A stretch of 64,000 nucleotides of DNA from a virus. Taxonomy: Duplodnaviria > Heunggongvirae > Uroviricota > Caudoviricetes. Positions 4,641-44,562 of the stretch are shown here, piece after piece. The notes under the pieces were generated by a model. The model searched no databases. It was given only the letters and a program-made list of their open reading frames with translations, and was not told the origin of the DNA. The position numbers were made by a program, and so were the translations under genes. Where the stretch lies: IMG/VR virus record IMGVR_UViG_3300008114_001632. One strand, given 5' to 3'. Within the stretch, counting starts at the first letter, position 1; each line of letters opens with the position of its first letter.

Positions 4641-5623
4641 CCCGGATACCTCGCATTTAATGGTACAGCATATAACTGTGCATTGTCGGCCACTCGTTGC
4701 ATGTCCCACTTAGCACAAAATTTAATCAGTCGCATTCCAACTTGTGTAATGTCTTTTGGAAAGCTAGCTTGTTTAATTGTATTATTAATTAGTTCTTTAA
4801 TTTCTAAAGGTTGTGCTGTTAAATCGCATAGAGTCACATTTCTATTATAGTCGTCTAACACACGATGTTCTACACCCTCGTGATCGGACCAACGTTGCAA
4901 CATGAGATTATTCCAAGCATAGCCTTTGGTATTCTTATCAGCATATGCTTCAGTAAGGCCTACTTTATTCTTAGTACCTTTAACTCTAACACCAGGATAT
5001 GCACTAAAGACATTATCACTAGTATCGCCACGCATACATTTTTCAAATAGCAACCAATCTGGATTAGGGGCAGGCTTAATTTCTTTCGTTTTCTTATCAA
5101 TTACAGACTTACCCTTGTCGTCAAAATAGCCTTCATGAGTAGTTGTAATATTACTGACACCATTATATTGTTTTACGTTTGGTGCAATGAGTTGTGCAAA
5201 GTCGCCGTCTGTAGAAATAATCACGTGATTGTCATGCGGGTGATTCTGCACCCAGCCTGCAATCAAGTCATCTGCTTCTAGTTGTGGGTGTTGCATTACA
5301 GTACAATTTGTTTTAGTTTGTACAAAATCTTTAAACTCGTCAAAGATTTCCCAAAACATTTTATCTTCCTCAGCTTCACGGGGAGTGAGCGCATCACGAG
5401 TTTCTTGTCGATTTCGCTTGTAAGGTTGATAAAAATCTTTACGCCAGCTACGTCCCTCAAGACAGAATACTACATGATCTGCATTAAAGTCAGTCCAAGC
5501 CTTTTTAATCGAATTGAATGTAATATGCAGGGCCATGCCCACTTTTGTGTCAAGGTCACCACGTACTACGTGTCGAGCTCTAAAAAAAGTGTTTGCAGTA
5601 TCTACTAGGATGTATGTGCTCAT
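4637..5623 (-). CDS. rnh: T4-like RNase H / 5'-3' flap exonuclease
   Basis: LVDTAN, EADD, STDGD and GDTSDN acidic motifs of the FEN/5'-3' exonuclease family. Confidence 0.9.
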   Translation of the reverse strand: MSTYILVDTANTFFRARHVVRGDLDTKVGMALHITFNSIKKAWTDFNADHVVFCLEGRSWRKDFYQPYKRNRQETRDALTPREAEEDKMFWEIFDEFKDFVQTKTNCTVMQHPQLEADDLIAGWVQNHPHDNHVIISTDGDFAQLIAPNVKQYNGVSNITTTHEGYFDDKGKSVIDKKTKEIKPAPNPDWLLFEKCMRGDTSDNVFSAYPGVRVKGTKNKVGLTEAYADKNTKGYAWNNLMLQRWSDHEGVEHRVLDDYNRNVTLCDLTAQPLEIKELINNTIKQASFPKDITQVGMRLIKFCAKWDMQRVADNAQLYAVPLNARYPG

Positions 5624-6069
5624 GAAACTTCGCTTTTGCCTTTTGCAATTGGTACTACATTAATATAACCAGCGCCGCGATTTGCATCCATGCCTTCTTC
5701 ACTTAGCATTTGTGATACAATGTCGCGGAACCAACGATCTACAACTTCTTCATCTGGATCACCTTCAAACCCGTATCCAGCTTGTCTTAATTGTACTATA
5801 AAAAGGTCATTCCAGTCAAGCTCAAAAAATCCATTCCTAATATTTTCTGGATTAACTTTAGTATCAAGCACCGCTACCCAAGGTTCTCCTTTAACTGTAG
5901 CACGTTCTTTTGGTGTCAATTTAGCTTGTTCTTCTGCTTTGGCAGCACGTTCAGCAGCCTCAGTGGCTGTTTTGGCTGCTTTGGCAGCGGCTGTAGCTAT
6001 TGCCATATTACGTTCAGCTTCTGCCTTGATCTTATCTATGCCAAATAATTTTTCTATAAATTTTTTCAT
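5620..6069 (-). CDS. hypothetical protein with Ala-rich coiled coil
   Basis: start at MKKFIEK 6069, overlapping the queE stop (TAATG). Confidence 0.75.
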   Translation of the reverse strand: MKKFIEKLFGIDKIKAEAERNMAIATAAAKAAKTATEAAERAAKAEEQAKLTPKERATVKGEPWVAVLDTKVNPENIRNGFFELDWNDLFIVQLRQAGYGFEGDPDEEVVDRWFRDIVSQMLSEEGMDANRGAGYINVVPIAKGKSEVS

Positions 6070-6926
6070 TAAGTACCCCATTCATTTTTAAATAGCGGCA
6101 CTTGCAAACGATCGCTATAGCGTAATCCGTTTTTCATTGCCAGTAATGCTACATTCTTATTGTTTAGTGCGTACACACTTTCTACACCGCCAACTGGCAT
6201 TAGATAAACATGCCCGTCAAAACCAGCCGCACGATATTCTTCAGTTGCACGTTTAGCATCTTCAAAATCTTGTTCTGTAGCAATAACAAACTTCAAATAT
6301 GCTGTACCAACTTTTTCGTATTCACAAACTATTTCAGGAAGAATTGCTTCTTCCCACTTCTCACCACTACATGGAAGTTTAGCACTTACACTGAATGTAA
6401 CTTCTCTCTCGTCACTACCAAGAAACCAATCTGTTAAGTATTCTTTAAATTCTGGAGTAAGTCTCTGGGTACCGTTTGTTTCAAATGTAATCTCTTTCAA
6501 ACCCGCCATCTTAGGATGACTTAGCAAGTCTGGATAAGCACGTTGCCAACCTAGTAAAGGTTCGCCGCCTGTAATTACAAGATGTTCGTCTTCCCACTCA
6601 TTGTATGGCAGTATCTCCATAATGCGATCAGCAATGGCATCACTAGTAAGCATTGGACTTAGATCTTTAAATGCTGGATGCCAACTTGCATAACTATCAC
6701 ATCCTGTACTTACTAACGGAAGTTCTTCATATTTTTGAAAAGACTCTATATTTGCATGTGTATACGCAATATCATCTGCTTCAATACTAATTTTATCACG
6801 CGGCATACCAAAGCCTGCACATTTAAAGTTGCAGCCGAATGTGCGTAAAAAGACACTAGGTACACCCATGTACCTACCTTCGCCTTGTATACTGTAAAAA
6901 AGTTCTGCTATTTTTATTTTGCTCAT
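6069..6926 (-). CDS. queE: 7-carboxy-7-deazaguanine synthase (radical SAM)
   Basis: ELFYSIQGEG N-terminus, GCNFKC...GCDS, ITGGEP, ETNG; close to folE and dpdA. Confidence 0.85.
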   Translation of the reverse strand: MSKIKIAELFYSIQGEGRYMGVPSVFLRTFGCNFKCAGFGMPRDKISIEADDIAYTHANIESFQKYEELPLVSTGCDSYASWHPAFKDLSPMLTSDAIADRIMEILPYNEWEDEHLVITGGEPLLGWQRAYPDLLSHPKMAGLKEITFETNGTQRLTPEFKEYLTDWFLGSDEREVTFSVSAKLPCSGEKWEEAILPEIVCEYEKVGTAYLKFVIATEQDFEDAKRATEEYRAAGFDGHVYLMPVGGVESVYALNNKNVALLAMKNGLRYSDRLQVPLFKNEWGT

Positions 6927-7198
6927 GCTTTTAATGATTCCATGGTTGCTATTTTTGCAATACGATCGCCAAAGTCTTGATCATTAGTGATAATATAAGT
7001 TTGGTTATGACTGCGATCCTTTATGCGATCATAGTAACGAAACTCTACAACTTTGCCGCCTATTGCATTGTATACTTTAAAGTTTAACACAGGTTCGCCT
7101 TCAATGCAATCACTTTCTCTACTAGATATGCATATATCTTTTCCAGGAGTATCTTCTTCAAACATCCAATTACGTAATTTACGTTTAATCCATTTCAT
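6923..7198 (-). CDS. hypothetical protein
   Basis: start re-assigned to MKWIKRK at 7198 (ATGA overlap). Confidence 0.7.
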   Translation of the reverse strand: MKWIKRKLRNWMFEEDTPGKDICISSRESDCIEGEPVLNFKVYNAIGGKVVEFRYYDRIKDRSHNQTYIITNDQDFGDRIAKIATMESLKA

Positions 7199-7410
7199 AC
7201 TTTGTCCTTTAACCACTCGTCTACTTTGGCTTCTGCTTCTTCCTGTGAAACAGCATAAGCATAAATCCAATAACATTCATCCTTGCCTTTAATATCAAAT
7301 GGCACAGGTCCGTTAAACAATATACCGTCTTCTAACATACGTTTAACTTCAAACTTTTTTAAATTTCTAGCACGATTAATTAAATCGTTAGTCATGTCTA
7401 TTGAGTTCAT
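7195..7410 (-). CDS. hypothetical protein
   Basis: start re-assigned to MNSID at 7410 (ATGA overlap, SD). Confidence 0.7.
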   Translation of the reverse strand: MNSIDMTNDLINRARNLKKFEVKRMLEDGILFNGPVPFDIKGKDECYWIYAYAVSQEEAEAKVDEWLKDKV

Positions 7411-8069
7411 TTTGTTTCCTTTATTAAACCACGCCACAGTACTACATGTTCGTTGGACCATTGATTGCCGTCCCATTGTGCATATGTAGGAAATGGCCAA
7501 TTAGGTGTTACACTTGAAGTAATTTGATAAGTACCGTTTCTTACAGGATTAATATTTACAGAAAACCAATCAGTTACTTCTGGCTCTTCAACTACTATTT
7601 CTTCAACAGATTTAATAGGAACTCCGCCTACAGAAATATTTTTATCAGGTTCGCCTTGAAATACTTCGCCAGTATCTTGATTAGTAAGTTCTAAAGGACC
7701 GTAGTAGTGATATTCTGTATCGTCTAGCATCCAACCTAACGCCTCAACAGCTTCGTATGTATCTTCGTCCCAAGCAGTATTAAACTCTTCAAGGTCTGTA
7801 TCAGTACAGTTACGACCTGCTTCAGTGTCTGCCCAACATCCGTCAATTAGGTCCCATAGTTCCCAACATTCGTCATTTTCAATACAGCTAAGTTCGTAAC
7901 CGTCTTCGTTTTTAAGTTCTTCGTCAGTAAGTGGTCGCTCATCTGATTCTACGCTAAAAGTACCCCAGCGATAACCTTCTTCGCGAATAATTACCTTGCT
8001 GTCTTTATACCAAAATTGTCGCTCAACAGCGGATTTTTTATATTGTGGTGAAAGTTTCCAAGTAGTCAT
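7407..8069 (-). CDS. acidic hypothetical protein with Trp-rich C-terminal domain
   Basis: start MTTWKL at 8069 with AAGGA SD. Confidence 0.75.
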   Translation of the reverse strand: MTTWKLSPQYKKSAVERQFWYKDSKVIIREEGYRWGTFSVESDERPLTDEELKNEDGYELSCIENDECWELWDLIDGCWADTEAGRNCTDTDLEEFNTAWDEDTYEAVEALGWMLDDTEYHYYGPLELTNQDTGEVFQGEPDKNISVGGVPIKSVEEIVVEEPEVTDWFSVNINPVRNGTYQITSSVTPNWPFPTYAQWDGNQWSNEHVVLWRGLIKETK

Positions 8070-8079
8070 ATTTTGTTCC

Positions 8080-8919
8080 TTATCTCGGTGCAAACTCTTG
8101 TTGTAATTTGATATTGTCAAAGAATTCTTTCTTTGTATGAGGATCATCTTTAAATGTTCCTTTAAGGACTGTAGTCTGTGTTAGTGAGCTATGCGCCATA
8201 ATGCCGCGATTCTCACAACATCCATGTGTTGCTTGAATGTATACTGCTACGTTTTCGGAGTCAGTAGCTTTACTAATCTCACGGGCAATGTCGTTGCAAA
8301 GCTCCTCCTGGAGTGTGCCTCGTCTAGCACACCACTGTGCAATACGTGTGTACTTGCTGAGCCCAATAAGTTTCTGAGCGGCAATAATACCAATATAAGC
8401 AACGCCACTAACGGGTTGATGATGATGACTGCACATACTGCGAAGCTCACTACGAACAACCAACATACCTTCGTAACGGTCCTGCGAGTCGTTTGGAAAT
8501 GCTGTTGCGTCTGGTCCTGGTTCATATCTGCCACTCATAATTTCGTTGAAGTACATTTTAGCAAGCCGTCTTGCTGTACCATGCGAGTTAGGATCGTTTT
8601 CACGATCAATCAACAAAGTATCTAATACTTGTTCAAATGCTTCTGTAGCTTCGTTGATTAAATGTTCTTTATCACTTTCGTGTAAGTAATCACTTATATT
8701 GTCTCCAGCCCAATATCTCTTTCCTTCTCTTTTCATTTTAGCACGTAGTACAGCAGATAGACTAGATTCCTTATATCCGCCGTCACCTGCCATTGCGTCA
8801 AGTGCTGTTTCTTTTTTAATATAAACCGGCTTACCCAATGGTTCATATTTCTCTTCAACAAACTCCCTGTTGTCAGGACCGTTCATTATCGGATCCGGTT
8901 TAAATTCTGCTTTTGTCAA
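8080..8919 (-). CDS. folE: GTP cyclohydrolase I
   Basis: SMCSHH, GLSKY.RI, LQEE, HGCCENRG; TTG start with GGAG SD. Confidence 0.95.
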   Translation of the reverse strand: MTKAEFKPDPIMNGPDNREFVEEKYEPLGKPVYIKKETALDAMAGDGGYKESSLSAVLRAKMKREGKRYWAGDNISDYLHESDKEHLINEATEAFEQVLDTLLIDRENDPNSHGTARRLAKMYFNEIMSGRYEPGPDATAFPNDSQDRYEGMLVVRSELRSMCSHHHQPVSGVAYIGIIAAQKLIGLSKYTRIAQWCARRGTLQEELCNDIAREISKATDSENVAVYIQATHGCCENRGIMAHSSLTQTTVLKGTFKDDPHTKKEFFDNIKLQQEFAPR

Positions 8920-8959
8920 TTTTATTCTCCGAGTTATAGACGTGGATGTCTATTGTTAA

Positions 8960-8988
8960 ATTATATACTTTATTTAGATCGTTGTCAA
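8960..8988 (-). promoter_or_regulatory. consensus sigma70 promoter with embedded CTAAATA late-like motif
   Basis: TTGACA-N17-TATAAT upstream of folE. Confidence 0.8.
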
Positions 8989-9195
8989 TCATTCTGAAAA
9001 ATATTTGTTAAGCATTTCTAGCTTATCATCATATTCTGCAATTTGAGCTATCTCTGCTTCAATAGCACTCATTATGTCTGTATGCTCTGGAATAGCAATT
9101 GGGTTCCGTAACATAGTTTCAACATTCATTCTATGTTTTAAAATATGTGATTCAAAATGTGCTTTACTGGCTTGTAGTAGTTCTTTACGCATCAT
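8989..9195 (-). CDS. hypothetical protein
   Basis: 68-aa helical ORF with GGAG SD. Confidence 0.7.
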   Translation of the reverse strand: MMRKELLQASKAHFESHILKHRMNVETMLRNPIAIPEHTDIMSAIEAEIAQIAEYDDKLEMLNKYFSE

Positions 9196-9364
9196 TGTCT
9201 CCTTGTTCTAATGCTTCTTTTAATTGCTTATCTTCATACTCAGCTAAACGTTGTCTAAATTCTTCTTCAGGCAGTCCGTGCCAACCAATACATTTACCTG
9301 TAGGACTGCGACCACATCCGCAGTTACCGATTTCGTTAACATCTTCTTTTACTCTTACTTGCAT
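9185..9364 (-). CDS. CDGSH-type iron-sulfur-binding-like small protein (59 aa, missing from the ORF track)
   Basis: manual translation MQVRVKEDVNEIGNCGCGRSPTGKCIGWHGLPEEEFRQRLAEYEDKQLKEALEQGDNDA; C-x-C-x2-S...C-x-G-x-H; overlaps both neighbours. Confidence 0.7.
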   Translation of the reverse strand: MQVRVKEDVNEIGNCGCGRSPTGKCIGWHGLPEEEFRQRLAEYEDKQLKEALEQGDNDA

Positions 9365-9708
9365 ATAGTTTCCTTTTTATAGTTGCCTTTTTCTGGTATA
9401 ACATGACGTACTCCGCCTCTAGGATCTTCCATGTCTCCCTTTCTACGGGGAATTAAGTGTATGTGCGGATACATAACAGTTTGGCCTGCTGCCTCGCCTA
9501 CATTTTGTCCAATATTAAATGCATCGCAGTATCCACGCTCAACCCAGTCATAACCCCACTTGTAGGCTGCTTCCCAACATTTTACCATGTGAGACCAATC
9601 TTCTACTTTAGGTACAAACAATAAATGTCCGTCAGTTACAGGAAATCCGTCCTTGTATACTGTAAAATCTTTAGAATCAATTAATACGTTAGTCCATGGT
9701 CCTGGCAT
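9355..9708 (-). CDS. HIT-family nucleotide hydrolase
   Basis: DGFPVTDGHLLFVP and NIGQ...AGQTVMYPHIHLIPR; first His of the triad replaced by Tyr. Confidence 0.85.
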   Translation of the reverse strand: MPGPWTNVLIDSKDFTVYKDGFPVTDGHLLFVPKVEDWSHMVKCWEAAYKWGYDWVERGYCDAFNIGQNVGEAAGQTVMYPHIHLIPRRKGDMEDPRGGVRHVIPEKGNYKKETICK

Positions 9709-9940
9709 TTTTCTGTTCCTCATAGGATTTAAATAAACGAGTTACTGCTTCCATTTGTTCTTGGAATACATCTGGTGCGCCGTCGGCTGCACGTTTCATA
9801 TCCCAGTCGCTAGGATAATGACGCAAACAATGTCTAGCGCCGTCTTTAATTGCTTTCGGGACTCGAGGAGTATTCAGAATCTCAACTAAAAATTTTTGAG
9901 TCTGTACCACTGCTCGATACCTTTCGTCAGGTAGTGTCAT
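9689..9940 (-). CDS. small conserved protein (resembles BPSL0761 family)
   Basis: MTLPDER...PRVPK...CLRHYP pattern recognised from memory. Confidence 0.55.
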   Translation of the reverse strand: MTLPDERYRAVVQTQKFLVEILNTPRVPKAIKDGARHCLRHYPSDWDMKRAADGAPDVFQEQMEAVTRLFKSYEEQKNARTMD

Positions 9941-10482
9941 TCTGATTGTTCCCATGGATATACTAACCAAACATCTTCTTCTGCCTTGTTTACTTCTGTA
10001 CTGTAGTAGCTAACTTCGTCAAACTTAGAACTTAGATTGTTAGTTAGCACTGCAAATCTAACGTTCTTACCCCACACACTATTCCATGCTGAATCTTCGT
10101 TTGGAAAACATCCACTAGACCAATCTTCTTTGATCCAATTAAACGTAGCACCGGTATCGTTGATATCATCGATAACAAGGATATTCTTTCTTTTTGAAAT
10201 ATCCCATCTACTCTTTAATGTCAATTGCTCTTCAGGTGATACAACCCCAAATGCATCTTCAGCTATACCTAAATCACTTACACATTGGCCACCATCACGC
10301 AGACTAACTTCTAGTGGGCGCATAGGAATATCAGTTAGATGACTTAGTATTACAGCAGGTATAGCACCGCCACGAGTAATACCAACAATGTAGTCTGGAC
10401 GCCAATTATCTTTGTACATCTGCATACTGATGCCTACACACATGTGTTGAATATCAGACCAAGTGTAGTAGAGTTTCTTCAT
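9937..10482 (-). CDS. type I phosphoribosyltransferase (purine PRT-like)
   Basis: IVGITRGG; PRPP-binding loop ILVIDDINDTGAT; C-terminal WLVYPWE. Confidence 0.85.
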   Translation of the reverse strand: MKKLYYTWSDIQHMCVGISMQMYKDNWRPDYIVGITRGGAIPAVILSHLTDIPMRPLEVSLRDGGQCVSDLGIAEDAFGVVSPEEQLTLKSRWDISKRKNILVIDDINDTGATFNWIKEDWSSGCFPNEDSAWNSVWGKNVRFAVLTNNLSSKFDEVSYYSTEVNKAEEDVWLVYPWEQSE

Positions 10483-10709
10483 TGCGTTAAACCGTAGGCC
10501 AATGCTTGAAGTTCTTCTTTAGTCATAAAAAAATTGTATGTTTGACTATCGGCAACTTCACCGTCTTTTAAACTTTCTTGAATAAGTTCAAGACTAAACA
10601 ATCCCTTAGGGTTTAGTACTTCGTGTTTTACCATGCGTACACGATAACCATCGTGTTCTTTAATTGTCATTTCTCTACGAGTGTGTGCAACTGATTCATG
10701 TAGTTTCAT
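10479..10709 (-). CDS. hypothetical protein
   Basis: 76-aa ORF, coupled overlaps. Confidence 0.7.
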   Translation of the reverse strand: MKLHESVAHTRREMTIKEHDGYRVRMVKHEVLNPKGLFSLELIQESLKDGEVADSQTYNFFMTKEELQALAYGLTQ

Positions 10710-11131
10710 TTTGAGTCCTTTATAGTTTCAAATATTTTATACTTTTCTTCGGCAAGTCGATACTCTTGTGCCGCCTCTTTAATTTTTATATTAACATCAC
10801 TTTGAAGTTTTTGCAAGAGTAATTGATATTGTTCTCCTGATTGTTTAAGTCCTTTAAACTTTGATTCTAAATCCCTGTTACGATTTACAACGCCAGTGAC
10901 TGCCATTAAATCTTTAAGTACTTGTTCAACATCAATGCCGTTAACGTCAAGCGGAACAGTAACAGTCATCCGACCTTGATTTATTATCAAACTAGCATCT
11001 ACAGACGAATTAGTAATTGCAGAGGTAGTATATCCACCATTGACTACTGTATTGTTATTAGGAGCAAGATTATTATACAATGAATTAACAGTCCATGCAA
11101 TCGGATTGGATTTAGTATTAACTGTTCCCAT
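10706..11131 (-). CDS. hypothetical protein with C-terminal coiled coil
   Basis: 141-aa ORF. Confidence 0.7.
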   Translation of the reverse strand: MGTVNTKSNPIAWTVNSLYNNLAPNNNTVVNGGYTTSAITNSSVDASLIINQGRMTVTVPLDVNGIDVEQVLKDLMAVTGVVNRNRDLESKFKGLKQSGEQYQLLLQKLQSDVNIKIKEAAQEYRLAEEKYKIFETIKDSK

Positions 11132-11570
11132 GCCGTTCCTTTAGATATTGTTCGTTTGGTATCCATTTATTGTTAACTAAAAATCCCCAATCACGTTTAT
11201 GTGGACCAGGCATAAAAAGTGTCCAAGCAGTGACACCTTCTTTTAGTTCAATGCGATGATAGCTATTAGGACTGCAAATACGGAAATGCCCAGGACCTCT
11301 CCATTTACGCACTTCACATGATTTAGTGCCGTCTGAATTAAATTGCGGAATCCATTCGTAGTAACCGCCTTTAAGAATTAATGTAGCATAAGGCCAAGGA
11401 TGATCATGTACATCATCTGGATCGCCTTTTAAAAACTTGTGTAAAAATATATTGAAAGGAAAACGTTCTCTTTCTTTTAAGAAAAGATAGTAACGCTCTA
11501 AATACGGCTCGTCATTAACACGATCCATAATAATTCTTTTTCTACCTAAACGTTCAAGAATTTTCAGCAT
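11118..11570 (-). CDS. cupin-fold protein
   Basis: HKF...HDHPW...GGYYE...YHRI cupin motifs; start re-assigned to 11570. Confidence 0.7.
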   Translation of the reverse strand: MLKILERLGRKRIIMDRVNDEPYLERYYLFLKERERFPFNIFLHKFLKGDPDDVHDHPWPYATLILKGGYYEWIPQFNSDGTKSCEVRKWRGPGHFRICSPNSYHRIELKEGVTAWTLFMPGPHKRDWGFLVNNKWIPNEQYLKERHGNS

Positions 11571-11952
11571 CTTTCTTACCTTTCCAATCTTGTAGTACAA
11601 GATCGTATACTGTTTTGAAGTTTTCGTATACCTTTGCTAGTGCAGGGTATTCTTTACACATAGATTCAACTTCAACTATTTCGATATGCGTGTTTTGTGT
11701 GGTTACCCACCATTGGGGGTCTACAGGGCTTATTGTAGTGTAAGTTCCACCAGCGCCGCTGGTTATCGTATTATATCCACCTGCACCACTGCCTATACTA
11801 ATAGTATCATCAAGAGTTATTGTATAACTGCTATCTATTGAACCTAGATCTTGTGCTAGGATGCCAACACCGCTACCGCCAAGATATGTAGTTGTTGAAC
11901 CGTATGTGTCGTTTAAATTTATAACAACAGTGTTGGAATCTTTATCATCCAT
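11554..11952 (-). CDS. hypothetical protein (Thr/Gly-rich N-terminus, YPAL motif)
   Basis: 132-aa ORF. Confidence 0.7.
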   Translation of the reverse strand: MDDKDSNTVVINLNDTYGSTTTYLGGSGVGILAQDLGSIDSSYTITLDDTISIGSGAGGYNTITSGAGGTYTTISPVDPQWWVTTQNTHIEIVEVESMCKEYPALAKVYENFKTVYDLVLQDWKGKKDAENS

Positions 11953-13036
11953 TTATTGCCTCATAAAGAGCTTTTCCTGAGAAGAATTCTTTTTTAAGTT
12001 TTGCTGTTTGTTTAAGTAAGCTAGGAAGAAAACTTTCGTAATTTTCCATATATTCAACTACTTGATTTACTATTTGTTTTCTATTTTGAATATAAGATCC
12101 AAAATCTTCTGTCCATGTACTAGGATACTTAAACTCTGCTAAAGCCATTTCAGAATAGCTTAAACGATCAGGAACCATTGGAATAGCATTTACTAGAGCG
12201 CCTTCGTACCAACTAATACCTAATGTTTCTTGCAAGTTAGCTGAAAACACTAATTTAGCACGACCAAGAATATTATGATATTCGTTCTTAGTTAATTGTT
12301 GCTCTTGACAAATTACAAATTCATACTGAGGTAGTTGTTCTTTAAGATCGCGAAAAATATCAACTTGTTTCTCGGGAGCAATACGATGAGGGAAAACAAT
12401 TAAATTTTCCTTATCCATGCATTTGTAACTGTCTAGGCTGTGTTCTAGATATTCCATAGGCCAGCCCACACGTTTGATTCTAGGATGTTCGCCAGCCAAT
12501 GCATCAGCTATATCATCTTCTATCCAAGGATTATCTAGACCAAACAATGTTCTTACAAACATGTCAATGTGAAAATCTGTAGCAAAGAAGTTATCGTCGT
12601 ATGTAAAAAACATACTCTGTTCAGCATGTCTTACCCAAGGCTTGTTTCCAATCAGTCGACCTAAGAAATCTTGAGGATCATAACTACCAGCATGCCATAA
12701 GCCACCAATTCTGATATTAATGTTTAGCAATTCAGCCATGTAACGAAGCTGTATAACTGTAGGGTTCCACGCATCAGTATAAAGGAAGTAGTCGCCATCT
12801 TTAACATCTCCCCTACAAAACATCTCCCCTATGGTTTCCAACTGTTTACTTTTATAAACATTAGTACCACCAAAATTAAGAAATGCTCCAGGAGTTGTAG
12901 CTTGTGGTGTATCACCGCCACTAATGACTACTACTTCTTTATTCGTAGCATGATGCAGTTGTTTAGGTAAGTATTCCTTCCACTGCTTAGTATAGCGAGT
13001 GTCAACTGCTTCAATATCTACGATATAGATTGTCAT
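11945..13036 (-). CDS. GT-B fold glycosyltransferase (GT4-like)
   Basis: FPHRIAPEKQ and SANLQETLGISWYEG (E-x7-E) donor-binding motifs. Confidence 0.75.
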   Translation of the reverse strand: MTIYIVDIEAVDTRYTKQWKEYLPKQLHHATNKEVVVISGGDTPQATTPGAFLNFGGTNVYKSKQLETIGEMFCRGDVKDGDYFLYTDAWNPTVIQLRYMAELLNINIRIGGLWHAGSYDPQDFLGRLIGNKPWVRHAEQSMFFTYDDNFFATDFHIDMFVRTLFGLDNPWIEDDIADALAGEHPRIKRVGWPMEYLEHSLDSYKCMDKENLIVFPHRIAPEKQVDIFRDLKEQLPQYEFVICQEQQLTKNEYHNILGRAKLVFSANLQETLGISWYEGALVNAIPMVPDRLSYSEMALAEFKYPSTWTEDFGSYIQNRKQIVNQVVEYMENYESFLPSLLKQTAKLKKEFFSGKALYEAING

Positions 13037-13290
13037 TAAGAACCTCTACGGTCGTAAAAACGTTTTGCACCATTGTTAGTATTGGTGTTATTGTTGTAAT
13101 TATTAAATCTACCACGACTCTTCGATTTGTAGATTAAGAATTTTTGGTAAGCCTGCCAAACAGGCGACTGGGTATCATAAAGATCCTTCTCATCGAAAGG
13201 ATACCCACCGTAACCTTCGAAGCGACAAAAGTCGCGGAACTTATCCAAGTCGTCGAAAATTTTATTGACTGGAGGAAAAGTTTGTGCCAT
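13036..13290 (-). CDS. hypothetical protein
   Basis: 84-aa ORF with AAGG SD. Confidence 0.7.
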   Translation of the reverse strand: MAQTFPPVNKIFDDLDKFRDFCRFEGYGGYPFDEKDLYDTQSPVWQAYQKFLIYKSKSRGRFNNYNNNTNTNNGAKRFYDRRGS

Positions 13291-13303
13291 TTTAATTTAC
13301 CTT

Positions 13304-13693
13304 TTAAAGATTGAATGGATAATAGATAAGTGAGCCGTTTTCTCCATCTTCGGAGACTTCTATTTCGACAAAGCGGCCTGGAAACTTTGAACGAATTTGC
13401 TGATACAAATCATCTGAAATCATCTCACATGATTTGTGATTCAGTTCTAGTGTGCCTTGATTATAAAGATTTTCTAACCAACGCTTAAATTGAATAAATT
13501 CGATGTCACGATCGTCGTGAAACACTTCGATACGAATTTTAAAGTGAAAAATGTGTCTATGGGGATAGCCTAGAAAACTTACGTCATACTGATCTCCAGT
13601 TTTTAGATTAGGGTCTGTAAGTGCTGCCGGGTAAAGATGAATGCCTTCTTTACGGAAGGTTACCCAGATGCTTTTTGTAATTGCTGTACTCAT
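13304..13693 (-). CDS. dpdL: QueD-paralogous T-fold protein, candidate CDG decarboxylase (DpdL-like)
   Basis: EGIH, LGYPHRHIF (LxxxHRHxF instead of QueD CxxxHGH), SCE; in the deazaguanine cluster. Confidence 0.6.
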   Translation of the reverse strand: MSTAITKSIWVTFRKEGIHLYPAALTDPNLKTGDQYDVSFLGYPHRHIFHFKIRIEVFHDDRDIEFIQFKRWLENLYNQGTLELNHKSCEMISDDLYQQIRSKFPGRFVEIEVSEDGENGSLIYYPFNL

Positions 13694-13699
13694 GTTCTT

Positions 13700-13728
13700 A
13701 TGATACTTTCAATGTAGGTAGTTGTCAA
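13700..13728 (-). promoter_or_regulatory. sigma70 promoter, probably giving a leaderless mRNA
   Basis: TTGACA-N17-TATCAT, 6 nt before the ATG at 13693, no SD. Confidence 0.7.
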
Positions 13729-13729
13729 C

Positions 13730-14254
13730 TTATTTGATAACTTCGTCTTCGGAATATTGAGACCATTCGGTAAACTTTGAACGATCCATTAGGTCGTGTA
13801 GGCTGTGACACCAAACACCGGGATTAGATGCTTTAAAATCTTTGTCGTCAATCTTAAGCATTGTGTTGTAATTCCATAAACGGATGTATGGAATAGGAAC
13901 TCGAATCTGTGGAATAAAATTGCTATACTCGTTAAATGCACTGTCGTTGAATGTTTCAACGTGGGATAATGGAATGTCTAAAGTACATAGAACACCTTGT
14001 TCCAAGAATGGAAGAATCATAGATTCCCACTCTAACCATGCGTCAAAGCTACCTATGTCAGGATGAAAGCTGTGATTAGCACCAAAGAAAATATGCTTTA
14101 CATCTTGTTCGATCATGTGCTTTTCTACAACGTCTGGACTATGAACCCCTGTAACAAACAGTGTGGGCATTCCATAAGCAGGAGTTTTTTCTATTTCATA
14201 TCCAAAGAAAAATACTGCGTCATCTGCTTCACCTGTGCTGTAATCTCTTTTCAT
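13730..14254 (-). CDS. hypothetical protein in the dpd cluster
   Basis: 174-aa ORF between dpdA and the QueD-like gene. Confidence 0.8.
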   Translation of the reverse strand: MKRDYSTGEADDAVFFFGYEIEKTPAYGMPTLFVTGVHSPDVVEKHMIEQDVKHIFFGANHSFHPDIGSFDAWLEWESMILPFLEQGVLCTLDIPLSHVETFNDSAFNEYSNFIPQIRVPIPYIRLWNYNTMLKIDDKDFKASNPGVWCHSLHDLMDRSKFTEWSQYSEDEVIK

Positions 14255-14460
14255 GTTAAAGTCATTCTTATTAATTGTTGGTTGATTCGATGTATCTCGT
14301 CTTTAAGCCATAGCTTCATAGTTTTCTTTTTTCGAACTTCGTCTGAGGCTGTTATATTATTATAGCGTACTTCAATTTCTGTGTCAAGCTCTTTATGTCG
14401 CCGTTCTAATTCTTCTAGATGTGCTTTGAGTTTATCATAGTCATTATTAAAGTTGCTCAT
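14251..14460 (-). CDS. DUF465/YdcH-like coiled-coil protein
   Basis: LEELERRHKELD...KKKTMKLWLKDEI. Confidence 0.7.
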   Translation of the reverse strand: MSNFNNDYDKLKAHLEELERRHKELDTEIEVRYNNITASDEVRKKKTMKLWLKDEIHRINQQLIRMTLT

Positions 14461-16006
14461 CCTCTAACGCCTCCAATTTATGTTCTTCATCTTCTGTAAA
14501 ACAACCATCTTCCAGTTCTTCTACTTCAGGTTCAACTACATCAAACAAAGCTCCAAAATATGTGCTAGAGTTTACAGTCTTTTTACCAATGGCGCCTCTA
14601 GTGCCTGGAATAGCCATCCAAAACTTTGAGTTTTGTTCTATCAACTTATTTGCAGCTTCTCTTGTAGTCTGTGAAAAGATTTCTTCTACAAGATCTCTAA
14701 AGAACACCCTGTCAAACTTTTCTTGTACAAGCATGTTTGGTACAACTCCAGCATCATACTGTCTGTTAGCTTCCTGTACTGCATTAATATGGCTCCAAAC
14801 ATTATGGCCCATTTGAATAGCGTAACTAAAACTATCCCAACTTGTGCGACCTTCTTTGCCAATTTTATTCAAGTCACCTGGTTTGTAAACGCATACATCA
14901 CTAACTTTCATTTCTGCTGTAATAGGACTATCTTCAAAGTTTTTAAAGATACCATCTTGCAATACTGCTTGTTTAAAAGTTCTAGTATCAGTTGCATACT
15001 TTTTATCGTCAATGCTTGGAACCATTCTATAGGTCCACTTGCCTCTATCAGGTGTTTCGTTCTGAATATAAATCTGTCCATTAGCAGTTGCTAAGAATGG
15101 ACTTGCACAGTCAAATGTCAACATCATAGTAGGATTGTAATACTTACGAATAGCACGTTGTAAGTCTGTAAGCAAACATGCCCACTCTAACTTACTAGTA
15201 CCCAAGAAGTGCATTACATCATGTACGCCACTTTGTAGTAAGCCATCAAAGTGTAGTGCTACTATACGTTTAAGTACTAGATGCACGTCACACATATTTT
15301 GCCCACCCATTGACCACCCATTAAAGTGATTGTCAGGATACTTAACTGGATCGCAATAATCTTTCATCTGCTGATACCAATCTTCTGCATCTGTATGATT
15401 CTCACCTTGTAGTACGTTTAAGAACTTACAAGCACCTGTACGATGCTTCATCCAATAATCGTTATTGATACGTGTTGCGGTTACAGCTTCGTCGTATGTA
15501 CTAATGCCTGTAGCTTTTGCACCTTCGGGTGAGCGAGCGACCCAGGCAGGAATATCAAGTACCATGCCATAGTCCATATACGCATCCATCCAACGTAATA
15601 CACCATCTCGTTTCTTTTGTGCCTTAGGACAATTAGGATCTTTCCAATCACCTTCCCAAACACCCTTACCAATCTGGAAACCACCTGAGTCGCCTAGTAA
15701 CCAAGTGTTTTGACGATCCCTGTTCCGTACCATATCTTCTTTAGGCACAATTTTGTTTGTATCTAAATCAGCGTGACCCGCAGAGTAAAGCGTCCACTTA
15801 TAGGTAAACGCTCCCTGTTGTGCATTTAGATAGTTAAGACTTTCTACACCATTTTGAAAGTTAGCCGGAATACGAGTGTCTTCGATGTAAGGACCTTTAA
15901 CAGGATCAGGAAAACGCTGCTTGCCCACGTAAGTTGCATAAAAGCCACTTAGTGCTGGTAAAAAGTGTGCGTAATCGTTTTGTGTTGCTGTTAAGTCTTT
16001 ATTCAT
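14447..16006 (-). CDS. dpdA: TGT-fold guanine transglycosylase, DpdA family (DNA 7-deazaguanine insertion)
   Basis: GDSGGFQ, LDIP, VLQG, SMGG, HFLG, FDCAS, GHN; no CxCxxC Zn site as in tRNA Tgt; clustered with folE/queE. Confidence 0.8.
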   Translation of the reverse strand: MNKDLTATQNDYAHFLPALSGFYATYVGKQRFPDPVKGPYIEDTRIPANFQNGVESLNYLNAQQGAFTYKWTLYSAGHADLDTNKIVPKEDMVRNRDRQNTWLLGDSGGFQIGKGVWEGDWKDPNCPKAQKKRDGVLRWMDAYMDYGMVLDIPAWVARSPEGAKATGISTYDEAVTATRINNDYWMKHRTGACKFLNVLQGENHTDAEDWYQQMKDYCDPVKYPDNHFNGWSMGGQNMCDVHLVLKRIVALHFDGLLQSGVHDVMHFLGTSKLEWACLLTDLQRAIRKYYNPTMMLTFDCASPFLATANGQIYIQNETPDRGKWTYRMVPSIDDKKYATDTRTFKQAVLQDGIFKNFEDSPITAEMKVSDVCVYKPGDLNKIGKEGRTSWDSFSYAIQMGHNVWSHINAVQEANRQYDAGVVPNMLVQEKFDRVFFRDLVEEIFSQTTREAANKLIEQNSKFWMAIPGTRGAIGKKTVNSSTYFGALFDVVEPEVEELEDGCFTEDEEHKLEALEDEQL

Positions 16007-16008
16007 TA

Positions 16009-16359
16009 TTATACCAAATGTTGTGCCAATACCATACAGCTAATCCAAGCCCATATAGTGTTGAACCCTACTAATGTTGGTAACAGTTTCTTCTCGCTAG
16101 CCCAAATCAATGTTAGACTTGTAAACAACGTGAAGAAATATAACCACCAAATTTGTATACCAAATATTAAGCCAGGAACAATAATAAAGGCCTTAGCCGC
16201 CCAACTGGCAAACTCTACTGTATTATAGTCAGTCCAATATTCCTTTGTAAACCACATGCCGTAACATTCTTTAATTTTTTTAAATCCTATGTGACCATAT
16301 ACAGCGCCACACAGAACTAAAAATGCTAAACATGCAGATAGTATTTGTACACTATTCAT
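16009..16359 (-). CDS. small multi-TM membrane protein
   Basis: about 3-4 hydrophobic segments. Confidence 0.75.
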   Translation of the reverse strand: MNSVQILSACLAFLVLCGAVYGHIGFKKIKECYGMWFTKEYWTDYNTVEFASWAAKAFIIVPGLIFGIQIWWLYFFTLFTSLTLIWASEKKLLPTLVGFNTIWAWISCMVLAQHLV

Positions 16360-17090
16360 TACTTGCTCTGCGCAGGAAGAATGTAATCGTATTTTGCTAA
16401 TCCGCTGTCAATACTGATCATCATAGCACCTTGATCAGAAATGCTCACAGTAGAGTCACCGTCTAGATTTAGAATACTTTGAATTTGTGCAACTGGCCAA
16501 CTCCATGCATGCTTTAGAGATCCAGATATATCGTGTTGAAATACAAATGAACCTGCGTGTGTACTTGCGTCACCAAAGTAAAAAACTAGATTATTGTTCT
16601 CTGTCTTGACAGTAAAGATTGGCTCTTCGCTGTGTGCGGCGCTCATTAGCTTCATACGTTGAATTGATGCAACACTAGGTTTAAATGTTACTTCCCATGA
16701 TGCGCCTTTGAATTTAACAGTCTTAAGTTTTTCTTCGATAATTGCTTTGTTCATAAAGCGATAATCGTTTTCAAAGTCACCTGCGGCATTTTCAAAGTGA
16801 ATGTGTGTTGGAATAACGTCACCGTTTCTTTCTGCACTTTTAACTTCAATCTTTGCCTTATCCTTATACTCAGGATTTTTTAAATGGAGAGAAAGTTTAT
16901 CTAAGTTTGGCATACCAAATGTGCCAATAAATTCAGCGACTGGTTTATGAGTGCTTGCAGTTAAAATAACAGAACGATCTTCTGCCATTGAATCAATAGT
17001 AGTTGATCCGTTTTCTGAATTAACTTTCACTAGTGCTAAAAATCCTAGTGCGTGTGTATGTGCTACGATATCTTGTAGTATGTCTTTCAT
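16359..17090 (-). CDS. sliding clamp / DNA polymerase processivity factor (gp45-like)
   Basis: 243 aa alternating beta/alpha pattern, FGMPNL, C-terminal YDYILPA; near polB; clamp loader elsewhere in the window. Confidence 0.65.
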   Translation of the reverse strand: MKDILQDIVAHTHALGFLALVKVNSENGSTTIDSMAEDRSVILTASTHKPVAEFIGTFGMPNLDKLSLHLKNPEYKDKAKIEVKSAERNGDVIPTHIHFENAAGDFENDYRFMNKAIIEEKLKTVKFKGASWEVTFKPSVASIQRMKLMSAAHSEEPIFTVKTENNNLVFYFGDASTHAGSFVFQHDISGSLKHAWSWPVAQIQSILNLDGDSTVSISDQGAMMISIDSGLAKYDYILPAQSK

Positions 17091-17112
17091 GCCTGTATAT
17101 CTCCTTATTAAA

Positions 17113-17838
17113 TTACAGTTTAATGTCTAAGCCTTTATTTGTCAAGAACTCTTTGACATTGTATTTAGGTTCAAAGCCTAATTCTTTTAAAATTTCTATG
17201 TTTGCCTGTGTACACTTTCTTTCGTGTAGTCTATTTAAACGAAGCGGTTTTCCTGGAGCTAGATCTTGAACGTTAGTACTTTCGCCAGTACCAACATCAA
17301 CTACTCCTTTAATATTTGGATTTTTTATCAATAGCTCAATAGCATCACATAGATCCTCTACGTGAATAAAATCTCTAGAATGATCAGTGATATATTCTAG
17401 TGAGTTTGATAACAGTTTATCCAATAACATGCCTTTTCTAGGATTGTCAGAATACACAGTATGGAATCTCATACCCACGCTATTATCCGGAGCCATCATG
17501 TCCATGATATATTTGGATGCGGCATACGGATTTAGTGTAGGCTCATATGCTGAACTTGAACTTGCATACAGTATGCGAGCTTCACTAAACTGATCAAAAA
17601 TTCTACGCGATCCTTCAACGTTGACATGCCAATAAGGTCCAGGAAGCCGCATACTTTCTCTTACACCACTTTTTCCTGCTAGATGTATTACTACATCAAC
17701 TTCGTAATCAAGTGTACATGTTAGAATGTCTTTTCCATCTTTTAAATCTATACCATACATAGTATAGCCTCTATCCCACAAATATGGATAAAGGTGACTA
17801 CCAATAAATCCTTTATGACCTGTCATTAAAATACGCAT
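17113..17838 (-). CDS. NAD-dependent epimerase/dehydratase (extended SDR)
   Basis: TGHKGFIG, HLAG, ASSS, YAASK, RDFIHV. Confidence 0.9.
   Translation of the reverse strand: MRILMTGHKGFIGSHLYPYLWDRGYTMYGIDLKDGKDILTCTLDYEVDVVIHLAGKSGVRESMRLPGPYWHVNVEGSRRIFDQFSEARILYASSSSAYEPTLNPYAASKYIMDMMAPDNSVGMRFHTVYSDNPRKGMLLDKLLSNSLEYITDHSRDFIHVEDLCDAIELLIKNPNIKGVVDVGTGESTNVQDLAPGKPLRLNRLHERKCTQANIEILKELGFEPKYNVKEFLTNKGLDIKL
17117..17145 (-). promoter_or_regulatory. sigma70-like promoter
   Basis: TTGACA-N17-TAAACT at the end of the epimerase gene. Confidence 0.6.
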
Positions 17839-17954: not shown

Positions 17955-20627
17955 TTAGTCTCCAAAGTCAAACAAACTGTTGAAGGTATTGTGTCGCTTA
18001 GTATCCTCTAATGGATAGTCCAGCACTCCAATCAAATTGTCTAACTTATTATCAATAATAGTTTCTGCCATTGCTGCATCATCAAATGGCAGTTCTTTGA
18101 ACCATTCAGGCATACGTAATTCATCTGTTGGATAAGCAACACTTGTATAGCCCAATGGGTTTTGTTTTAGTTTGCAAACAATAACTTTCATGCCGTCAAC
18201 AATCTCTTGCGAGTATTTGTCTCCGTTCATACGTTTAAGTGTATTCCAATTAATACTTGCTCTAACGTGGCCGGGCATGTTTGCTTTGCCCTGTTTTGCT
18301 TCGAGTCGTTGATAGTGTCCAATCTTGTTTGCACGTTTTGGACTACCTTTCTCCCAACCCGGACGTTCACTAAACTCTTGCCGGAATCTTGTAATACGTT
18401 CTAATACATCTTCTCTAGGTTTATCTGTAAGCACCATAAGCAATAGTTCGCTTAGAAATTCTTGCATAAACACAGGTGTATCACTTCTACGCAGGTCTAA
18501 GCCCATAGCCTTTACTTTGCCTGGCTTACCATCTACGTCACTGCGGAAACCTTCTGTGTCATATACCAGAGCCGCATAACGTTTTTTAGTAATAAACAAT
18601 CCGCTTTCAGCAACAATCTCACGACCTGCGGCAATAACTTCTGCTCGACTTTTTGGACAATGAAATGATTTTGCCATCATGTCAACAAACGTAGCATTGG
18701 CTGCTTCTGCTACTTGATCGTAAAGTGTAATAACATTTTCTTTAGACCACGGAATCTTACCTGCTTCTACTTCTTTACTGAGAGTAGGCCAAGCACTAAA
18801 ATACACAGAGTCAGTGTCACCGTAAATTACTGCCTCACCAACGTGATCATAAACACCAGTAATAACTTTGTTTACTTCTGCACTCATGTGTTTAACAATA
18901 GTACGACCAGTAAGAGTAGTACTTTGACCAATACGCTTGTCAAAGAATCTACAACCTGGATTAAGAATGGCACCGTATAAACTGTTAAGCAAAATCTTCT
19001 TAACCAACTGTCGTTTGTCCCAGTATTCAGTTTCTGCTTTGTTACCTGCTTCTTTTGCTTTTTTCAACATCTTTTGCAGGTCCTTACGTTCAGCATACCA
19101 ACGCTTTAGAATACCTGGAATAACACCTTCAAACTCTTGTGTAAAGATAGTGCCGTTACTACTGAGCATCCACGGATTGTTACTGTCAAAAATTAATTTA
19201 TAAATTTCAGCACCGCTCATTACTTCTGTTTGTCCGCTTTCAAAGTCTATTGTTAGAGCAACATCCTTGCGCTTGCTCATAACAGCTTCGTATTCTTCTG
19301 TTGCAAAACGACCTTCCCAACTTCCAGCAAATGTTTTTTTCTTAAGAGTTATGTCTTCGTGAACACGAGCATCACTGATGTCTAGTCGTATTTGTCCAAC
19401 GATAGTTTCTGGAGCCATATTCAAAGCACGAATCACTGACGGATACAGAGAGTTCAAGTCCATCGAACCAATCCATTTGTGCAAGCCTTTTTTAGGAAAC
19501 GCAACGTATGCACCTGCGGCTTGTATATTTTCTTCGTTATCTCTGTTTGTACGATTGGGAACCTGCAATCCACGATTGTGAGCTTCGTTGATAATACCTT
19601 GTTCAGTAACAGCAACAGCACCCATTGTAGTTTGGATAAGCACGGTGTTCTCATGTGCAATGGTATTACTCAAATCAATAAAGCGCAGTTTTTTATCTAA
19701 CTTATCAAGTAGTGCAGTATCTTGAATGTTGTATTGAATAAACTTTTTAAAGTCATTGTTGTAAAGCTGATCCAACGTACCTTCGTATGCTGTCTTGTTT
19801 TCGCCTACTTCAATTTCACCAATAGCATCTAGTCGATAACTGTGACGTTCTTCATAGGTATACTTACGATACAAGTTCAAACTGTCTACGTGTACACGAC
19901 CTACTAAATCGTATGTCTCGCTCATCTTGCCGTACTTTTCGTATTCACGCTTCTTAGGCAATTGACCCCATAAGCAAAAACGTCTTGTATCGTCTTTACT
20001 CATTATGCGGGCTACACGATTTACAATATAAGGGATATCATAGCCCTCGCTGTTCCAACCACTTAATATATCAGCTTCTTCGATAAGTGTTAAGAACGTG
20101 TCCAGCATGTCCTTTTCTTTTTCAAACAACATTACATTAGGAATATCTTTAACTAATTCTGTCGCTTGCTCCATAGTAAGTGTCTTAGGAGGGACTGCCA
20201 AACATATCATTGTTTCTAACCACTGCAAATAAACGGAGACAGACGTAATGCCCATAAATGGATCGCTAGGGTCAGCAAATCCACGTTCGGGATCAAAGTC
20301 TGTCTCAATATCGAAAAATGCAATGTTTAGTTTTGGAGCATCTTGGTTGAGATAGTTTTCACTTAGACATTGAAAGATTGGATTAATATCACTTTCAAAT
20401 AAAGTTTTATCTCGATTGATGGCAATTTCTTTGCGGAAATCTTTTGTGTTCTTACATACAATACGACTCAAAGGATCTCCGTACACACTCTTGTACTTGC
20501 CTTTTTGGTCTTTGTAGTAAAATGTATACTTTACAGGATATTCACGGAATGTTCTAACTCCGTCTTTGCGTTCAACTATTTTGATCGTATCATGATCACG
20601 GTCAAACAATGCGTCTACGTAACTCAA
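17955..20627 (-). CDS. polB: family B DNA polymerase (T4 gp43-like)
   Basis: Exo FFDIET, GWNSEGYDIPY, YNIQD; Pol DLNSLYPS, KILLNSLYG, YGDTDS; TTG start. Confidence 0.97.
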   Translation of the reverse strand: MSYVDALFDRDHDTIKIVERKDGVRTFREYPVKYTFYYKDQKGKYKSVYGDPLSRIVCKNTKDFRKEIAINRDKTLFESDINPIFQCLSENYLNQDAPKLNIAFFDIETDFDPERGFADPSDPFMGITSVSVYLQWLETMICLAVPPKTLTMEQATELVKDIPNVMLFEKEKDMLDTFLTLIEEADILSGWNSEGYDIPYIVNRVARIMSKDDTRRFCLWGQLPKKREYEKYGKMSETYDLVGRVHVDSLNLYRKYTYEERHSYRLDAIGEIEVGENKTAYEGTLDQLYNNDFKKFIQYNIQDTALLDKLDKKLRFIDLSNTIAHENTVLIQTTMGAVAVTEQGIINEAHNRGLQVPNRTNRDNEENIQAAGAYVAFPKKGLHKWIGSMDLNSLYPSVIRALNMAPETIVGQIRLDISDARVHEDITLKKKTFAGSWEGRFATEEYEAVMSKRKDVALTIDFESGQTEVMSGAEIYKLIFDSNNPWMLSSNGTIFTQEFEGVIPGILKRWYAERKDLQKMLKKAKEAGNKAETEYWDKRQLVKKILLNSLYGAILNPGCRFFDKRIGQSTTLTGRTIVKHMSAEVNKVITGVYDHVGEAVIYGDTDSVYFSAWPTLSKEVEAGKIPWSKENVITLYDQVAEAANATFVDMMAKSFHCPKSRAEVIAAGREIVAESGLFITKKRYAALVYDTEGFRSDVDGKPGKVKAMGLDLRRSDTPVFMQEFLSELLLMVLTDKPREDVLERITRFRQEFSERPGWEKGSPKRANKIGHYQRLEAKQGKANMPGHVRASINWNTLKRMNGDKYSQEIVDGMKVIVCKLKQNPLGYTSVAYPTDELRMPEWFKELPFDDAAMAETIIDNKLDNLIGVLDYPLEDTKRHNTFNSLFDFGD

Positions 20628-44538: not shown

Positions 44539-44562
44539 GAAAAGGGCTTACGAGCCCTTTTC
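44539..44562. terminator. bidirectional intrinsic terminator
   Basis: GAAAAGGGCT-TACG-AGCCCTTTTC between convergent phoH and dCMP deaminase. Confidence 0.8.

Follow-up and report, generated by a model that had tools for sequence, protein, structure and literature searches.

A DpdL-type gene set in a freshwater jumbo phage

The stretch of DNA analysed here, 64,000 nt of the virus record IMGVR_UViG_3300008114_001632 (the window, to whose positions all coordinates refer), carries genes for 7-deazaguanine synthesis clustered with genes for a DNA polymerase, a sliding clamp, a transglycosylase-fold protein and a glycosyltransferase (GT). With a probability of roughly 60%, we read this cluster as a DpdL-type system that is linked to replication and modifies the DNA of a freshwater jumbo phage with 7-deazaguanine, acting stepwise from the GTP cyclohydrolase FolE to the GT. 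The linkage of the genes suggests that the modified base is probably extended by glycosylation. Modifying DNA with 7-deazaguanines is one of the main ways in which phages evade restriction. To our knowledge, ten or so such derivatives are known in DNA and none of them is glycosylated, and the sugar-bearing DNA bases that we know of so far are all pyrimidines. If the base is indeed glycosylated, it would be the first purine with a sugar attached to be known from natural DNA.

A preliminary description, made from the sequence alone, had listed queE, folE, a T-fold protein with the motif LGYPHRHIF and a protein with the fold of tRNA-guanine transglycosylases (TGTs). All four were found on the minus strand at the positions in Table 1, as were the epimerase, phosphoribosyltransferase (PRTase), HIT protein, cupin, GT-B protein and Cys-rich open reading frame (ORF) that it also named. 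The minus strand holds every gene within 4–21 kb of the window. The gene complement is that of a DpdL system, with FolE, a QueE-like enzyme and a DpdA-like protein in the window, a QueD-type gene in the genome and no QueC in either the window or a complete relative. The window DNA was found in freshwater and lake metagenomes, its GT was letter-identical to a protein on a 320-kb contig, and no near-identical record came up when the locus was compared with cultured phages by megablast. The source is best read as a jumbo phage from freshwater, not in culture, with a genome of some 320–360 kb.

A TGT-fold enzyme with a predicted clamp tether

The 519-aa TGT-like protein had no match in Pfam, PHROG or NCBIfam, or among PDB sequences searched with phmmer and profile hmmsearch. 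Pfam scans at E-values up to 10 retrieved neither PF01702 nor PF20314 (DUF6610, DpdA4). The protein was recognized only by structure and profile–profile comparison. Its AlphaFold2 (AF2) model had a predicted local confidence (pLDDT) of 90.9, and all of the listed top 50 Foldseek matches were TGTs (best 7e-7). VIA aligned the model with TGTs over ~300 residues at Z 17–18.4 and a root-mean-square deviation of ~4.3 Å. The TIM barrel is shared with Tgt, ArcTGT, DpdA1, DpdA2 and bDpdA (Z 17–18), and so are the aligned catalytic motifs. A profile comparison with Escherichia coli Tgt in hhalign reached a probability of 91% and paired DSGGFQ, LD, LQG, GWSMGG, HFLG and FDCASP of the window enzyme with DSGGFQ, FD, IQG, GYAVGG, YLMG and FDCVMP of Tgt. 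The aspartate of DSGGFQ, the substrate aspartate, QG, GG and the nucleophile aspartate of FDC were all aligned in this way. Residues S75, D106, S107, G109, D151, P153, H266, G269 and D299 were invariant in 51 diverse family members. Direct reading of the sequence found no CxCxxC...H zinc site after D299, which together with the aligned motifs bears out the earlier view of a TGT-fold protein with its catalytic core and without a zinc site. The enzyme thus differs from Tgt, DpdA1, DpdA2 and bDpdA in lacking both a PF01702 match and the zinc site. It further differs from Tgt and the DpdA proteins in extra N- and C-terminal segments, in a tail that is disordered and carries a clamp motif and in its predicted substrate, DNA.

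On these models, the 519-aa protein has the TGT fold and belongs to a distinct, very large family, for which more than 7,000 close proteins and 939 clusters at 50% identity were counted. Its placement among the known groups was partly achieved: the TGT fold is clear and hhalign gave 96% against a 424-aa TGT-like protein of phage ACP17, but neither PF01702 nor PF20314 was matched and the alignment with DpdA3 of phage phiST (CGPG_00065) was faint, at 48% over 86 columns only. It is plausible that the protein is a DpdA exchanging guanine in DNA, given its genomic context, its clamp motif and the modified guanine of phage PA5oct described below. A family member with 46% identity (contig of P0124) adjoins QueC rather than DpdL and the GT; the family would therefore serve deazaguanine pathways with differing end products.

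The last 50 residues of the AF2 model were disordered. An F-x-x-L-F motif recurred in the tails across the family, often at the extreme C-terminus. Among the soluble proteins of the window, only PolB, with TFNSLFDFGD, and the TGT-like protein, with TYFGALFDVV, end in this motif followed by acidic residues. Polymerases of the T4/RB69 type likewise bind their clamp through a short hydrophobic L-F-D-type motif in a disordered tail, whereas here the motif also sits on a transglycosylase predicted to modify DNA. When the clamp was modelled in complex with residues 455–519 of the TGT-like protein, the score was 0.82, compared with 0.00 for the best control; the mark applied to this score is one that 51 of 78 solved complexes attained, as did 2 of 108 mismatched pairs. 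Contact agreement among the runs was at least 52%, with a pLDDT of at least 47 for the partner and 92 for the clamp. In the modelled interface, residues 481–493, STYFGALFDVVEP, lay against the interdomain loop (116–130) and the C-terminus (237–242) of the clamp. These models suggest that the enzyme probably rides the replication clamp through its PolB-like tail motif. We found no paper linking deazaguanine enzymes to the clamp. Clamp tethering would explain a complete, replication-coupled base replacement and would add DNA-modifying enzymes to the clients of the clamp.

DpdL and precursor synthesis

By sequence, the T-fold protein of the window is a DpdL homologue. It reads FLGYPHRHIF, which fits the motif LxxxHRHxF that replaces the CxxxHGH of QueD. 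In tblastn searches it was 56% identical to DpdL of ACP17 (6e-39) and 33% identical to CGPG_00067 of phiST (4e-9). When DpdL proteins were aligned, LxxxHRHxF was seen for phiST, ACP17, Phosso and a metagenomic lineage (L171), and HFH at this place in PA5oct. The name DpdL was given to the ACP17 and phiST proteins, is defined by LxxxHRHxF and goes with a proposed function as decarboxylase of 7-carboxy-7-deazaguanine (CDG) (Cui, Hutinet et al., NAR 2023, PMC10516641), just as the preliminary description had stated.

FolE scored 137 bits against PF01227 (cut-off 27), which places it within the family; it has an N-terminal extension of ~80 aa and is 59% identical to FolE of Phosso. The QueE-like protein gave partial matches to the NCBIfam QueE equivalogs, far below their cut-off (62.9 versus 206 bits), and was 42% identical to its L171 orthologue. 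The layout of its radical-SAM motif is unusual: C32-x3-C36 has no Cys at +3, and the next candidate, C76, follows an insertion of ~40 residues.

No QueC, QueF, QueD or Tgt was found in the window with tblastn. The absence of the first three had been pointed out before and stands for the window, but a QueD-type gene is present in the same genome. It was found on the JGI contig L177, which is 100% identical to window positions 45661–64000, and encodes a 175-aa protein of the PTPS family ~4.1–4.6 kb past the window end on the same strand (L177:6163–6687). The protein reads FRQW...CSLLHGY. The CxxxHGY form is common to the QueD proteins of phiST and ACP17, and the gene is therefore of the QueD type of known DpdL phages.

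A relative of 357,559 bp (CheckV: 100% complete), with a TGT-like protein 93% identical to that of the window, had a single QueD-type gene ~56 kb from the TGT-like gene and no QueC, QueF or Pfam-type Tgt. The search for queC and queF beyond the window was thereby extended to a whole genome, and in this complete relative the route without QueC is borne out for the genome as a whole. PA5oct and Phosso also had no QueC and no Pfam-type Tgt, and their PTPS genes lay far from the cluster.

In L177:5475–7520, ~3.2–5.3 kb past the window end, the QueD-type gene is flanked by genes for DUF115-like and DxD glycosyltransferase-like proteins. A 2-oxoglutarate-oxygenase-like gene is also inserted at this place in the relative G001. 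These flanking genes could form a second sugar or oxygenase module tied to the pathway.

Comparison with characterized phages

The closest characterized counterpart is the DpdL/DpdA3 system of phiST, which makes 2'-deoxy-7-deazaguanine (dDG) (PMC10516641). Shared features are FolE, a QueD with FRQW...CxxxHGY, QueE, a DpdL with L-x3-HRH-x-F, a TGT-fold enzyme undetected by Pfam, the lack of QueC and, by prediction for the window, the replacement of guanine after replication. The transglycosylase differs: it is 519 aa long here versus 259 aa in phiST, is barely alignable to phiST DpdA3 and carries a tail with the clamp-binding motif. Identity between the two DpdL proteins is just 33%. A GT4, PRTase, epimerase and 174-aa protein, all of which travel with the set here, are missing from phiST.

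The locus is syntenic with that of the Pseudomonas jumbo phage PA5oct over PolB, the clamp, the TGT-like protein (36% identity), the GT (43%), DpdL (53%), an epimerase-like gene, the PRTase, QueE and RNase H. PA5oct also has its QueD-type genes elsewhere in the genome and no QueC. It differs from the window phage in the HFH form of DpdL, in two PTPS paralogues, in its host and habitat (Pseudomonas versus freshwater) and in the lack of folE in its 19-kb locus, the part of the PA5oct genome that was searched for this gene. A system for the synthesis and incorporation of deazaguanine had been listed for PA5oct by Iyer et al. 2021 (PMC7824862). Its DNA resists five restriction enzymes with G-containing sites and is restricted by nucleases that sense modified DNA, one of which targets only phages with modified G; modified G was concluded from this and its chemical identity left unassigned (PMC12191111).

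Sites for GATC, GGATCC and GAATTC are not purged from the window, as noted earlier from individual sites, all of which exist. Their counts were near expectation (GATC: 261 occurrences versus 220–235 expected). This is weak evidence, fitting chemical protection.

Glycosyltransferase and its linkage to DpdL

On its model, the 363-aa protein is a GT4-type GT-B glycosyltransferase. The AF2 model (pLDDT 86.7) matched BshA, MshA, PimB' and glycogen synthase in Foldseek at 1e-8 to 1e-6, and the E-x7-E motif (QETLGISWYE) is conserved. Relatives of the GT reached 5.7e-9 against PF00534, to which the window copy was only a weak match; the GT sequence had no match in the PDB. Two scans of viral contigs for diverse relatives returned only proteins with at least 70% identity. 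The best structural match in Swiss-Prot was tRNA-queuosine alpha-mannosyltransferase (QTMAN/GTDC1; 1.1e-8), with six orthologues in the top 16. According to its Swiss-Prot name, this enzyme glycosylates a 7-deazaguanine derivative in nucleic acid. The window GT shares the GT-B fold and the GT4 E-x7-E signature with QTMAN, BshA and MshA, but is only ~12–15% identical to them; moreover, the acceptor queuosine of QTMAN has a diol, which dDG lacks. We take the modelled likeness to QTMAN as a lead, not as membership. By its sequence, the epimerase at 17113–17838 is a candidate supplier of the nucleoside-diphosphate (NDP) sugar.

A pterin-glycoside pathway, suggested by FolE, PTPS, GT4 and a match to tetrahydrobiopterin glucosyltransferase, was considered and set aside, since the conserved partners are QueE, DpdL and the TGT-fold enzyme.

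Synteny across related phages, to which the preliminary description had pointed as a check, was found in PA5oct, and linkage of genes of the set in Phosso, ACP17 and metagenomic lineages. Among 80 related loci from IMG/VR, the clamp, TGT-like protein, DUF465 protein, 174-aa protein, DpdL and GT were each present in 65–80, and the counts dropped only at contig ends (DUF465 protein in 74, 174-aa protein in 76); the 84-aa protein was present in 68 and the epimerase in 56. The core set of TGT-like protein, DpdL, GT4, FolE and QueE recurred in the distant phages PA5oct, Phosso and ACP17 and in the metagenomic lineages. The GT adjoins DpdL in Phosso (48% identical GT) and ACP17 (36%) and lies within ~3 kb of it in Burkholderia phage BCSR5 and the Xanthomonas phages X1 and BUDD. 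In PA5oct and L171, too, the GT is a neighbour of DpdL or at most ~3 kb away from it. The PA5oct cluster includes the epimerase-like gene and the PRTase. L171 has the clamp, DpdL, TGT-like protein, GT, FolE, PRTase and QueE in compact order, and a Tara marine contig (L172) has the TGT-like protein, GT, full-length epimerase, FolE, a GuaC-like enzyme and PRTase. As judged from this linkage, the GT and the PRTase are not bystanders, which gives substantial backing to the view that the pathway is larger.

It could be argued that the phage, like phiST, carries plain dDG, and that the GT, epimerase, HIT protein and cupin have other uses, for instance in glycosylating a different DNA base, some protein or the envelope of the host. 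A GT that adjoins DpdL or lies within ~3 kb of it in L171 and in six or more distant lineages known from culture, and keeps this pairing while the surrounding gene order changes, speaks against such a division. The window showed no pathway to hydroxymethyl-pyrimidines, and its ThyX and dCMP deaminase are ordinary. The idea draws on phiST itself, which has FolE, QueD, QueE, DpdL and DpdA, no GT, and contains dDG; on further DpdL phages that had no GT match (RHph_I1_18, Bakedbeans, Ahp1, BUCT-ZZ01 and D479); and on 7-deazaguanine having no obvious group to accept a sugar. We consider it rather unlikely, though it survives best among the alternatives. The choice between dDG and the 2'-deoxy form of 7-carboxy-7-deazaguanine (dCDG) offered in the preliminary description stays a prediction, but the conserved GT suggests that the final base is not plain dDG.

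Phosphoribosyltransferase and accessory genes

The PRTase scored 33.2 bits against PF00156, above the cut-off. Its nearest family was xanthine-guanine PRTase (NF006613; 4.6e-10), at 39 bits against a cut-off of 138. Orthologues were found in the clusters of PA5oct, L171 and L172. In the marine relative L172, a GuaC-like member of the IMPDH family directly adjoins the cluster PRTase (L172:5469–6515); we take it to be of the GMP reductase type, as is E. coli GuaC.

PRTases are also known from deazapurine antibiotic pathways (ToyH and TubC). The one here might accordingly be thought to convert CDG or 7-deazaguanine to a ribonucleotide, which would enter DNA via the deoxynucleoside triphosphate pool or stay free, possibly glycosylated. 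The PRTase is conserved inside the cluster, together with the GuaC-like enzyme beside it in L172 it resembles the ToyH/ToyE pair, and the phage also has nucleotide enzymes of the HIT and MazG-like kinds. Within the set, in turn, conservation is highest for the TGT-fold enzyme, whose intact catalytic motifs and clamp-motif tail fit an action on DNA after its synthesis, and the PRTase is nearest to xanthine-guanine PRTases. All phage 7-deazaguanines are held to be inserted after replication (PMC10516641). Such a pre-replicative route is therefore, in our view, improbable.

The larger pathway that the preliminary description had suspected around the sugar and nucleotide genes was upheld for the GT, which recurs in many lineages, and for the PRTase (PA5oct, L171 and L172), but the cupin, HIT protein and Cys-rich ORF were not shown to be core. 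These three were confined to close relatives. The cupin was seen in 32 close relatives and was missing from the loci of PA5oct, ACP17, Phosso and L171; it is a possible accessory, non-core oxygenase. The HIT protein was found in 34 related loci.

Searches with the 174-aa protein gave no match in Pfam, PHROG or NCBIfam, none among PDB sequences with its profile and no Atlas feature match, and the 84-aa protein had no match in Pfam or PHROG. Among cultured phages, the 174-aa protein was found with tblastn only in the PA5oct group and ACP17, all of which carry DpdL and the GT. A relationship with the so-called glycosylase at the same position in Phosso was considered and dropped, as the two proteins were unrelated on comparison. 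The 174-aa protein evolves much faster than its neighbours: it is ~55% identical in loci whose TGT-like proteins are 92–93% identical.

Proposed mechanism

We propose the following order of events for a replication-linked, DpdL-type system. Going by their gene families, FolE, the QueD-type enzyme encoded beyond the window and QueE would make CDG from GTP. DpdL would then, in line with the published proposal, turn CDG into the base to be inserted, presumably 7-deazaguanine. The TGT-fold enzyme, tethered to the clamp as the modelled contact suggests, would swap guanine for this base on fresh DNA, an activity predicted from its fold. Gene linkage further suggests that, most likely, guanine set free by the exchange is converted to GMP by the PRTase, refilling the GTP pool; by removing guanine, it would pull the reversible exchange towards completion. 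Finally, the GT4, fed by the epimerase, might add a sugar to the modified base, a step to which linkage points.

That the TGT-like enzyme and the GT instead act on host or phage tRNAs, to form a queuosine-like glycosylated wobble base, is suggested by the tRNA enzymes that make up all structural matches of the former and by the tRNA-queuosine mannosyltransferase that tops the Swiss-Prot matches of the latter, but is very improbable given a gene position between clamp and replication genes, a tail that has the same clamp motif as PolB and is placed by the model in the pocket of the clamp, a window without tRNA genes, a missing TGT zinc site and PA5oct virion DNA that resists restriction at G-containing sites.

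Several points nevertheless weigh against a clamp-tethered, glycosylating DNA-modification system. Plain 7-deazaguanine has no hydroxyl for O-glycosylation of the GT4 type. An unseen step or an unusual linkage would therefore be needed, which is the main chemical weakness; such a step might fall to the 174-aa protein or to the cupin. The modified base is a putative acceptor of the GT, proposed from gene linkage, other GT4 enzymes lay within one log of its QTMAN match, and the GT had no match to PF12038, the N-terminal domain of QTMAN. We found no paper on glycosylated deazaguanine or a sugar-bearing purine base in DNA, nor on a link of the GT or the PRTase to a deazaguanine system. The guanine-scavenging role of the PRTase is one that we infer, and no PRTase was seen in the Phosso and ACP17 clusters. 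Clamp–peptide complexes have already been solved, and passing the complex-model mark may show likeness to them rather than binding by this copy. The decarboxylase role of DpdL stays a published proposal, and dpdL plus dpdA of either phiST or ACP17 yielded no dDG when expressed in E. coli (PMC10516641); the absence of partner genes would account for this failure. In this phage, the system is known from genes and models.

An extension of the same scheme to PA5oct, ACP17, Phosso and a very abundant group of freshwater and marine jumbo phages, with co-replicative, clamp-tethered replacement of G, a glycosylated 7-deazapurine and PRTase-driven completeness, is put forward only tentatively. Cultured members exist, and PA5oct already shows modified G, so that the chemistry is accessible in culture.

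Gene table and other features of the window

The genes of the locus are listed in Table 1 in the order of their transcription, from the polymerase to the RNase H-like protein.

Table 1. Genes of the modification locus, with positions in the window and the basis of each annotation.
Feature	Length (aa)	Position	Strand	Basis or remark
Family-B DNA polymerase (PolB)	890	17955-20627	-	47-50% identity to PA5oct/Phosso PolB
Short NAD-dependent sugar epimerase/dehydratase	241	17113-17838	-	PF01370 7.8e-24; PHROG 540
PCNA/gp45-like sliding clamp	243	16359-17090	-	Homologues annotated PCNA or sliding clamp
Long TGT-fold (DpdA-like) protein	519	14447-16006	-	AF2, Foldseek, hhalign
DUF465 small coiled-coil protein	69	14251-14460	-	PF04325 3.3e-7
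174-aa protein without known fold	174	13730-14254	-	Conserved neighbour; no family match
DpdL homologue (QueD-like T-fold paralogue)	129	13304-13693	-	LGYPHRHIF motif, homology
Small protein between DpdL and GT	84	13036-13290	-	Conserved; no family match
GT4-type GT-B glycosyltransferase (GT)	363	11945-13036	-	AF2 and Foldseek; E-x7-E motif
Cupin (HxH...H)	160	11118-11600	-	PHROG 4786 3.2e-39
Purine-type phosphoribosyltransferase (PRTase)	181	9937-10482	-	PF00156 3.9e-8
HIT-family nucleotide hydrolase/transferase	122	9355-9723	-	PF01230 3.5e-9
Cys-rich ORF, CGCGRSPTGKCIGWH	59	9185-9364	-	Translation
FolE (GTP cyclohydrolase I)	279	8080-8919	-	PF01227 6.1e-40; PHROG 2197
QueE-like radical-SAM enzyme	285	6069-6926	-	PHROG 2076 4.7e-51
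RNase H-like protein	328	4637-5623	-	Comparison with phage loci

A block of replication and nucleotide genes at 44548–47408 (minus strand) encodes ThyX, dCMP deaminase, an AAA+ clamp loader and a cytidylyltransferase-like protein, as assigned by Pfam on the identical contig. The 185-aa ORF at 49517–50074 (minus strand) matched only a DnaE fragment (PF07733), in agreement with a mini-DnaE noted separately from the sequence. A giant gene for 3,028 aa covers 55661–64000 (minus strand) and extends across the window end to ~64.7 kb (L177:10001–19087); the only Pfam hint to its nature was a weak match to E1_FCCH. The sequence GTGCAC occurs at four sites in the window, three of which (22343, 22394 and 22445) are exactly 51 nt apart, and this spacing suggests a 51-nt tandem repeat within a coding region.

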